Positions 8,900 to 10,191 of a DNA stretch of 59,290 bases are shown one piece after another. Within the stretch, counting starts at the first letter, position 1, and each line of letters starts with the position of its first letter. The notes below the pieces were generated by a model. The model was not told where the DNA came from and did not search any database. It saw nothing but the letters and a program-made list of their open reading frames with translations. The stretch comes from a virus: the IMG/VR virus record IMGVR_UViG_3300029721_000003; one strand, 5' to 3'. The position numbers and the translations under genes are program-made.

Positions 8900-10191
8900 T
8901 TAATACTTAATATTCATATTTCCGTGTTCATTTACCCAATCAATAGCTTCTGCATATGTCACGCCATTGTTTTTCAAGATATATAGCAGATTATGGAATT
9001 TAGGGTGTGTTTCTTTCAGCCTTAAAAATCTGCTTTCTTTCTCTAAGTGGCATCCGAATCCGCACAACACGCAGCCGGTTCTTTGACAGCCTGTAGTTTT
9101 CAGAAATGGTCTTTCCTTGTCAAAAATCCCGAAATCAGCAAATGACATCTGATTTTCACATTGCCCCATAGCTTCGTAATCTGTGACTACTTCGCCATAA
9201 ACGGAACATATCGGAAAATAAAATTCGGTATTTTCGACACTCGCTCCTGTTTTCTTGTATACAATCCTATTTCCGTAAAACATCTTGTCATCGCTCATTC
9301 TGACTTCAATCATGCTTTTCGCGTTCTCTTTGATATAAAGTAAAACATCCTGTTCCGTCCAAAATGACATAGGGTTACTTGTTGGGATTTTCAAATCAAA
9401 TCCATTACAGCCATTTTGCAACCATTGTGAAGTTCTTAATTTGCTTTCGCTAGCCATTTGAGCGGTAATAGGTACTCTGCCTGTATCTTTGTGATATTGG
9501 TGCATAGGCTGTTTCTTCATCACTTTACAACATTGATTAGATACCTCAAATGGTGCATTTAACATAAACAGATACTTTGACCTGTCATACATACTACCAA
9601 ATTCATCACATTTAACACCGAATAGCTGTTTCACTCTTATAGGTGATTTCAAAACTTCGCTAGGGATATTTCCCATCTTCAAATTTGTAAATAATTTGTT
9701 TTCTTTGTCTGCTCTCCTGTCTATTCCTATCAAGTCGGCTATTCGATAAGCAAACGGAACCTCTGTCTGGCTGGCTGGCTGGCTGGCTGGCTGGCTGTAA
9801 TGATTCTAATGTACTTTCTGCTATCAGCAATACATTCTGATATTTCTTTTGAAAATATTGGAAAACCATACCTTTCACAAACCTGTGCAAATGAAATTTG
9901 GGGTTTCAAAATCACAAGATTGTCAAATGTCTTGGCGAACTGCTTCAACTCTGGATACTGTGTCGGAACATCCGCAAACACAAAAGGAATATTTTTATAT
10001 CCGCAAACTTCTCTGATTATGTGTCCTAAAACTGTGCTATCTTTGCCACCGCTAAATGACAGATACACTCCATCTTCGCCAAATTCATTTACCCAGTTTC
10101 TTATTCTCTCGGCTGTCATTCTGACTTTGATATTCAGCGGCAATGCCTGCCATTGGTATAATTCCTGCATTGTGTGTTTTGCCATACTCAC
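8900..10191 (-). pseudogene. PAPS-reductase-like (PP-loop) protein, split into two ORFs by a tetranucleotide repeat
   Basis: N-terminal ORF 9739-10191 has SFSGGKDS. The C-terminal ORF (to 8900) has ...NQCCKVMKKQP... and the CQRTGCVLCGFGCH Cys cluster. The C-terminal frame is open back through the repeat. Confidence 0.75.
9767..9797. repeat. Tetranucleotide simple-sequence repeat, 7 full units plus 3 nt
   Basis: ctgg x7 + ctg on the plus strand; GCCA x7 on the coding strand. Confidence 0.95.

Follow-up and report, generated by a model that had tools for sequence, protein, structure and literature searches.

The window analyzed here is the whole 59,290-nucleotide (nt) stretch of IMG/VR virus record IMGVR_UViG_3300029721_000003, a phage genome whose minus strand carries, at 8900-10185, a gene of the phosphoadenosine phosphosulfate (PAPS) reductase/PP-loop type with an exact (GCCA)x7 tetranucleotide tract inside it (9768-9795). 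On the coding strand the tract stands in the context ...AGAATCATTACA(GCCA)7GACAGAGGTTCCG..., and the GACAGAG directly 3' of the GCCA units (9761-9767, minus strand) is taken as a remnant of an ancestral (ACAG)n run, as relatives carry (ACAG)n there. Because this ACAG remnant follows (GCCA)7, Tandem Repeats Finder called a longer span (9763-9797, period 4, 8.8 copies). The tract is the sole non-triplet repeat with more than three units across the 59,290 nt, and a matching tract was obtained in 0 of 100 dinucleotide-preserving shuffles of the window.

The tract splits the gene into two overlapping frames. The N-terminal open reading frame (ORF) starts at ATG 10185, or at GTG 10191, and a Shine-Dalgarno-like GAGGTG (10191-10196, minus strand) can be read 5 nt upstream of the ATG. 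It carries the PP-loop motif SFSGGKDS, enters the tract as ..ITASQPASQPARQRFRLLIE (ASQPASQPARQ across the tract) and stops at TAG 9739-9741, eight codons past the tract, which yields a product of 148 amino acids (aa) at seven units (9739-10185, minus strand). The C-terminal frame is displaced by 2 nt (-1/+2); it is open from 9805 across the tract to TAA 8900-8902 and encodes the rest of the PAPS_reduct domain, including a CC pair and a CxxC...C cluster (8900-9805, minus strand), so that 67 nt (9739-9805) are shared by both frames. When the tract was rebuilt in silico with 3-11 units, one ORF resulted at 5, 8 and 11 units (427, 431 and 435 codons), and the remaining counts led to truncation at 146-179 codons. 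The preliminary description, made from the letters of the window, had presented the locus as a PAPS-reductase-like gene split by seven GCCA units, with an SFSGGKDS half ending eight codons beyond the repeat, a second half open through the repeat in a frame displaced by 2 nt, fusion into a protein of about 430 aa upon gain of one unit or loss of two, and an assembled 7-unit state that is OFF. All of this was reproduced, the tract now being placed at its exact coordinates. Scans for promoters and terminators gave background level only.

Subsequently, genomes nearly identical to the window were compared with it. Over 21.3 kb, contig L081 differs from the window by three single-nucleotide polymorphisms (SNPs) and one 4-nt indel, which lies in the tract (eight vs seven units), and contig L082 shows an 8-nt gap at the tract, corresponding to five units. 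Neither contig has a SNP in the gene, and in both the two halves are joined into one ORF (hereafter ON). Their predicted products match the fused protein of the window: P0001, encoded on the L081 contig (59,057 nt), is the 8-unit ON form with 100% identity over 429 aa, and P0002, encoded on the L082 contig, is the 5-unit ON form with 99% identity over 425 aa. The exact 148-aa OFF product of the 7-unit allele was called on 11 public contigs of 20-200 kb, a tally of product calls in which L086 alone was retrieved with its sample identified. OFF is the common state of the window's lineage, and since the 7-unit product recurs on 11 contigs, a one-off assembly error is ruled out as the source of the count, a possibility that the preliminary description had raised. 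Beyond these contigs, a nucleotide search of GenBank phages detected no close relative (best match 68% over 190 nt), a protein search returned homologues of at most 40% identity that have neither the tract nor the insertion described below, and an exact-flank scan of IMG/VR for the GCCA allele of the window gave 0 matches.

The tract was then surveyed across the clade in 83 loci, comprising 80 IMG/VR loci together with L081, L082 and the window, and the frames of the two gene halves were scored. A tetranucleotide tract occurs at one and the same site in the 83 loci, after ..SRKYI(R/K)IL.. and before ..(I/V)P(F/Y)A... Most loci have (ACAG)n with n=2-17, three have (AACG)n with n=10-13, and the lineage of the window has (GCCA)n; in L050 and L051 an 8-nt repeat, (ACAGACAA)x4, was found at the tract site. 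The frame was ON in 42 loci and OFF in 33, and eight contigs end inside a pure ACAG run; these proportions are not population estimates, since tblastn score, by which the 80 viral loci had been ranked, is biased towards ON alleles. A metagenome pattern scan blind to the state of the ORF, in which ON and OFF reflect tract length modulo 3 only, recovered 17 contigs from 17 different assemblies (tracts of 15-35 nt), of which eight were ON and nine OFF. In cluster listings, a truncated 258-aa form was present on 111 contigs vs a 434-aa form on four. The comparison of homologous phages for repeat presence and copy number that had been called for at the outset thus revealed a variable tetranucleotide tract in about 100 related contigs, with ON and OFF in similar numbers. 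Relatives with two genuinely separate genes and no repeat, which would have spoken against a switch, do not occur; the tract-less relatives (L028, L029, L040 and L041) have a single fused ORF and are ON. One locus scored ON, L037, reaches its continuous ORF by another route: a 4-unit tract that shifts the frame is compensated by an indel about 80 nt downstream (about 5400-5500), by which 27 conserved residues are replaced by out-of-frame sequence.

At this one site the units ACAG, AACG and AGCC encode TDRQ, NERT and ASQP, respectively. As three unrelated peptides occupy the same position, it is the repeat that is conserved and not the peptide encoded by it. The tract is kept at the site in lineages down to about 60% protein identity while unit and peptide change. 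Intermediate alleles were found in P0017 and P0023, which read TDSQPDRQT. This peptide would back-translate as (ACAG)2(CCAG)2(ACAG)3, and if so, the unit of the window may have arisen from ACAG by one A-to-C change followed by expansion.

To what extent the tract changes relative to the rest of the gene can be read from closely related pairs. Of 21 pairs without a single SNP in the 1,064-1,187 nt of the gene that flank the tract, 15 differ in tract length, and so do 33 of 45 pairs with a divergence of at most 1%. Four loci with identical flanks (L010, L011, L065 and L076) have 9, 6, 10 and 8 units. All differences in tract length are multiples of 4, save in one lineage with a degenerate 2-unit tract. 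These comparisons indicate that mutation is far more rapid in the tract than elsewhere in the gene. The gene around the tract is intact: both the N half and the C half (209-288 codons) are complete and free of any other lesion in 35 of 35 OFF loci. Comparing the C halves of OFF loci with each other, 5367 synonymous vs 1332 non-synonymous codon differences were counted (pair counts that are not independent), similar to comparisons between ON loci, and the substitutions fall overwhelmingly on third codon positions. To judge by this pattern, the downstream half is under purifying selection also in genomes in which it is out of frame.

Taken together, the locus combines a non-triplet repeat within an ORF, polymorphism in whole units, and ON as well as OFF alleles of an otherwise intact, selected gene, which are the hallmarks of a contingency locus. 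We therefore consider it likely, on the strength of these genome comparisons, that 8900-10185 is one gene for a PP-loop enzyme of about 430 aa that harbors a slipped-strand simple-sequence contingency locus. The ON/OFF switch proposed in the preliminary description gains support from the copy-number differences seen both among near-identical genomes and across the clade. According to the proposed mechanism, the tract would gain or lose whole 4-nt units through slipped-strand mispairing during DNA replication, and since 4 is not divisible by 3, every such step would bring the last two thirds of the gene into frame or take them out of it. In the lineage of the window, alleles with 5, 8 or 11 units would give the full-length enzyme and the 7-unit allele the 148-aa PP-loop stub. 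In a population of phages or lysogens, switching would be rapid and reversible, and the switch may be kept as a bet-hedge, with expression of the enzyme being helpful on some hosts and costly on others (e.g. where modification-dependent restriction operates) or during lysogeny.

Several observations weigh against this interpretation, in addition to the preference for ON alleles in the ranking of loci. The 7-unit OFF allele dominates the window's own lineage (11 contigs vs one each with eight and five units), which may mean that seven units are rather stable or just that OFF is favoured. Some lineages look locked, either ON without a tract or OFF with a degenerate one (L054, L068, L073, L074, L077 and L091), and no DndD/DndE/SspB/SspC/BrxC-type partner was found near the gene. 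In a Lachnospira intestinalis prophage the PAPS-like gene is deleted, which together with the locked lineages shows that the gene is accessory, dispensable and sometimes truly lost. Neutral microsatellite instability, without any adaptive switching, in such a dispensable gene that is in the process of being lost would account for the degenerate-tract lineages fixed OFF, for the deletion, for the dominance of the 7-unit allele and for the fact that in the window the neighbouring metallo-beta-lactamase (MBL)-fold gene is broken as well. It does not sit well with two complete halves in 35 of 35 OFF loci and their strong third-position and synonymous bias, nor with a tract that persists at one site down to about 60% protein identity, where neutral decay would have eroded it. 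Furthermore, in about 1 Mb of related loci, non-triplet repeats above the length thresholds of the scan were confined to the site in the PAPS-like gene and to two sites in the methyltransferase gene adjacent to it in relatives. We therefore regard neutral instability as unlikely and retain the contingency locus as the preferred reading.

The predicted fused protein matches Pfam PAPS_reduct (PF01507) with 47.8 bits (cut-off 22.5) and PHROG 424 "phosphoadenosine phosphosulfate reductase" with an E-value of 2e-34. Its AlphaFold model, calculated from a 51-sequence alignment to which a second clade had been added, reached a predicted local distance difference test (pLDDT) score of 80.6 and a predicted template modelling (pTM) score of 0.80; a model from a shallow alignment gave pLDDT 50. 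The top PDB matches in Foldseek are the PAPS/APS reductases 7rge, 6vpu, 7lhr and 2goy (probability 1.0, target-normalised template modelling score 0.52-0.57). The Foldseek viral library offered no label other than "PAPS reductase", and a PDB sequence search gave marginal matches to the PP-loops of NAD and GMP synthetases only. Across two clades, G47, D49 and S50 of the PP-loop SFSGGKDS are invariant, as are the CC pair C220 and C221, C373xxC376 and H381, and C380 is nearly invariant. In APS reductase, the [4Fe-4S] cluster is bound by a CC...CxxC arrangement of ligands, and DndC, too, is a PP-loop Fe-S protein. The family is large, with 2,390 clusters at 50% identity (E <=0.001). We conclude from sequence and model that the gene of the window encodes a predicted DndC/APS-reductase-like PP-loop protein of the PAPS-reductase superfamily. 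Membership among the DndC/SspD/BrxP phosphorothioation enzymes was considered and rejected: there is no whole-protein profile match, and neither a partner ATPase nor a DNA-binding component is adjacent. PADLOC matches to BrxP and SspD cover about 40-50 residues of the PP-loop only (E about 7e-6), none of the NCBIfam models reached its own cut-off with the fused protein, and the sole nearby P-loop protein, at 12123-14054 (AAA_23 ATPase) is SbcC-like (PHROG 77) with no match to DndD. Given that BrxP and SspD match it only weakly, and in the PP-loop alone, and that no Dnd, Ssp or BREX partner was found nearby, the protein is placed in the PP-loop superfamily outside the phosphorothioation families. 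The probable role of the predicted enzyme is in DNA modification or in some other means of countering host defence.

Within this protein, a clade-specific insertion of about 60 residues has the tract at its N-terminal edge, and in the model the tract encodes a loop of low confidence after helix 113-131 (mean pLDDT 56 for residues 131-140). A loop at the edge of an insertion explains why ON proteins tolerate 2-17 units. In a sister clade of about 330 aa, which includes Ruminococcus and Clostridium phage homologues, the insertion is absent and the tract was found in 0 of 120 sequences. Flexibility of this kind, and the range of unit numbers among ON alleles, could also mean that selection acts on the number of TDRQ or ASQP repeats in a variable-length linker and that frameshifted alleles are incidental. 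This is difficult to reconcile with three unrelated peptides at the site, with intact relatives that have no tract, and with about half of the assemblies being out of frame. In a variant of this idea the OFF alleles would encode a working enzyme in two pieces, and the gene caller does find the 258-aa downstream product in OFF contigs. Yet the N-terminal fragment of the OFF state is devoid of the conserved block that follows the tract, including the invariant G155, R158 and R159. If, as its position in L086 suggests, the 258-aa product begins at the Met of ..LKMGNIPSEV.., the block would be missing from this product too, lying upstream of it. A selected linker, in one piece or two, is thus quite improbable.

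OFF templates might still yield the full-length protein by ribosomal frameshifting or transcriptional slippage, in which case the state of the DNA would tune the amount of enzyme. A -1 shift within the 67-nt overlap would indeed fuse the frames from the 7-unit state, but the overlap contains neither an X XXY YYZ slippery heptamer nor a homopolymer run, and OFF alleles exist in both wrong frames, which a shift in one direction cannot rescue alike. Transcriptional slippage, moreover, is known for homopolymers and not for 4-nt units, and we judge recoding to be very improbable. That the true genome has eight units and the split is an assembly or sequencing artefact has next to no probability, for although short tandem repeats can be miscounted and eight related contigs break inside long tracts, the 28-nt tract is far below read length, the differences come in whole units, and OFF counts were obtained in dozens of other assemblies besides the contigs that share the 7-unit product.

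In relatives, a C5 cytosine DNA methyltransferase gene (PF00145, 6e-50) is located directly upstream of the PAPS-like gene in about 20-25 of 105 loci; in L005 the two genes occupy 3059-4973 and 4992-6170. This methyltransferase gene contains two variable repeats of its own. A (TACT)n repeat with n=3-6 lies immediately 5' of the sequence for the catalytic SFPCQ motif (3325-3340 in L005), and in the L005 background the first junction is in frame at n=2, 5 or 8. Further downstream follows (AGAGC)n with n ranging from 3 to at least 16 (3803-3837 in L005), inside which several contigs end. The methyltransferase gene with repeats was also found in L004, L009, L027, L030, L035, L047-L049, L089, L092, L093, L096, L098, L099, L101 and L104, and the window has no homologue of it. 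The adjacency of this gene and its repeats tie the PAPS-like gene to a DNA-modification module and point to repeat switching as a recurrent feature of these phages. A reverse-transcriptase gene (RVT_1, YMDD) was observed upstream of the methyltransferase gene in L005 (2014-3054) and also in L008, L032, L039, L049-L051, L089 and L095.

More tentatively, the clade might run a 'phasome', in which up to three independent hypermutable repeats, (ACAG/GCCA/AACG)n in the DndC-like enzyme and (TACT)n and (AGAGC)n in the C5 methyltransferase, would stochastically toggle DNA modification and so hedge between hosts. We regard this as possible, at a good deal less confidence than the switch itself. Each burst or lysogen population would then hold differently modified genomes, which would be a hedge between hosts with modification-blocked restriction and hosts with modification-triggered defence, and the epigenome of a lysogenic host might be reprogrammed, amounting to a phage-borne phasevarion.

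As assembled, the window corresponds to a complete phage genome of about 59.2 kb in circular permutation, and its two ends (1-99 and 59192-59290) form an exact 99-nt direct repeat. The gene neighbourhood comprises SSB, an SbcC-like ATPase, RecT, a CxxCxxCC protein, the PAPS-like gene and the MBL-fold hydrolase, with an integrase further on; the PAPS-like gene is situated in the early, recombination region of a temperate phage. Relatives were found in genomes and metagenome-assembled genomes of Blautia, Lachnospiraceae and Lachnospira and in human-gut metagenomes, some of them on bacterial contigs as long as 470 kb, and the phage is a temperate phage of human-gut Lachnospiraceae. A precomputed Gad2 label of a 237-aa neighbour was not reproduced by hmmscan, and an Apyc1 label of the MBL-fold gene corresponds to a match below threshold; the region is therefore not called an anti-defence island. 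Imperfect tandem repeats of 11, 12 and 23 nt, rich in TTGTTA, are present at 3443-3576 in and beside the ORF at 3118-3903 in the replication region, and this cluster may represent iterons or an origin.

The MBL-fold hydrolase gene (8157-8887, minus strand) lies just downstream of the PAPS-like gene. In the window, a break exactly within its HxHxDH motif leaves two pieces of 57 aa and 174 aa: intact relatives have CAC CTT GAC CAT at this point, and the window has CAC CTC TAG ACC, a net change of +2 nt that involves no repeat. The same broken allele is also found in diverged relatives. The observation covers the window and L006, L008, L021, L022, L030, L038, L058, L081 and L082, with independent lesions at the same codon in L038 (in-frame TGA) and L008 (1-nt insertion); a single intact ORF was seen in about 25 relatives and in the Lachnospira prophage L085. 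In L001 (6219-7952), and also in L023, the MBL-fold gene is interrupted close to the site of the lesion by a free-standing HNH homing-endonuclease gene (274 aa, HNH_3 and NUMOD4), which has a different N-terminal MBL fragment on either side. The small lesions of other genomes at the HxHxDH codon may represent scars left at this homing site, or alleles that resist cleavage.

For phage PAPS-reductase-like genes, a full-text literature search returned no report of a tetranucleotide switch, in line with the preliminary description, to which such a repeat was not known as a described feature of these genes. Phage PAPS reductases have been discussed as DndC/SspD-like anti-defence candidates (PMC13551039). 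When the claim that a phage PAPS reductase evades Dnd, which is made there, was traced further, PMC12345140 and PMC8569181 proved to concern other proteins. With DndC, SspD, BrxP and APS reductase, the protein of the window shares PF01507, the SGGKDS PP-loop, the CC pair and CxxC, and weak PADLOC matches; unlike DndC, SspD and BrxP, it is matched in the PP-loop only and is not accompanied by DndD, DndE, SspB, SspC or BrxC. No simple repeats were seen in dnd genes (review PMC6435447). If the contingency locus is real, it provides a natural ON/OFF genetic handle on a phage PAPS-reductase/DndC-like enzyme, and in phage metagenomes, annotators would have to read a "split" gene or "pseudogene" call at a tract of this kind as a state of a switch and not as an error.

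The closest known counterparts are the type III mod genes of Haemophilus influenzae and Neisseria ('phasevarions'), which are switched ON and OFF by gain or loss of 4-nt units within the ORF (PMC6435447). The locus of the window resembles them in having a 4-nt run inside the ORF of a DNA-modification-type enzyme and frame switching by whole units. Some mod genes use the unit AGCC, which equals the GCCA of the window in a shifted register. In contrast to the mod phasevarions, the host genome here is that of a temperate phage of Gram-positive gut anaerobes and not the chromosome of a Gram-negative pathogen, the protein is of the PP-loop/PAPS-reductase type and not a methyltransferase, and the system is known from genomes alone.

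In phages, poly-A tracts in agt and rIIA of T2/T4 were recently presented as contingency loci and as new to phages, agt being a DNA-glucosylation gene subject to a trade-off between two type IV restriction systems (Gomez, Barrick, Waters; bioRxiv 10.1101/2025.10.21.683753). Poly-G tracts in receptor-binding genes of Campylobacter Fletchervirus are described by Sorensen et al. (2021), as cited in the same preprint, in which tetranucleotide or dinucleotide repeats are not mentioned. Repeat contingency loci of phages have so far been recognised only as homopolymer tracts, and the tetranucleotide form is new. What the locus described here would have in common with those of T2/T4 and Fletchervirus is a phage gene toggled by reversible repeat frameshifts, and the T2 gene likewise encodes a DNA-modification enzyme. 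In T2/T4 and Fletchervirus the phages are lytic and the tracts are homopolymers 6-11 nt long, those of T2/T4 having been studied experimentally. The clade of the window, a large group of abundant, uncultured temperate phages of the human gut, conserves at a single codon position a tetranucleotide tract that reaches at least 17 units, as seen by comparative genomics alone. The clade thus appears to use the contingency-locus strategy of bacteria.

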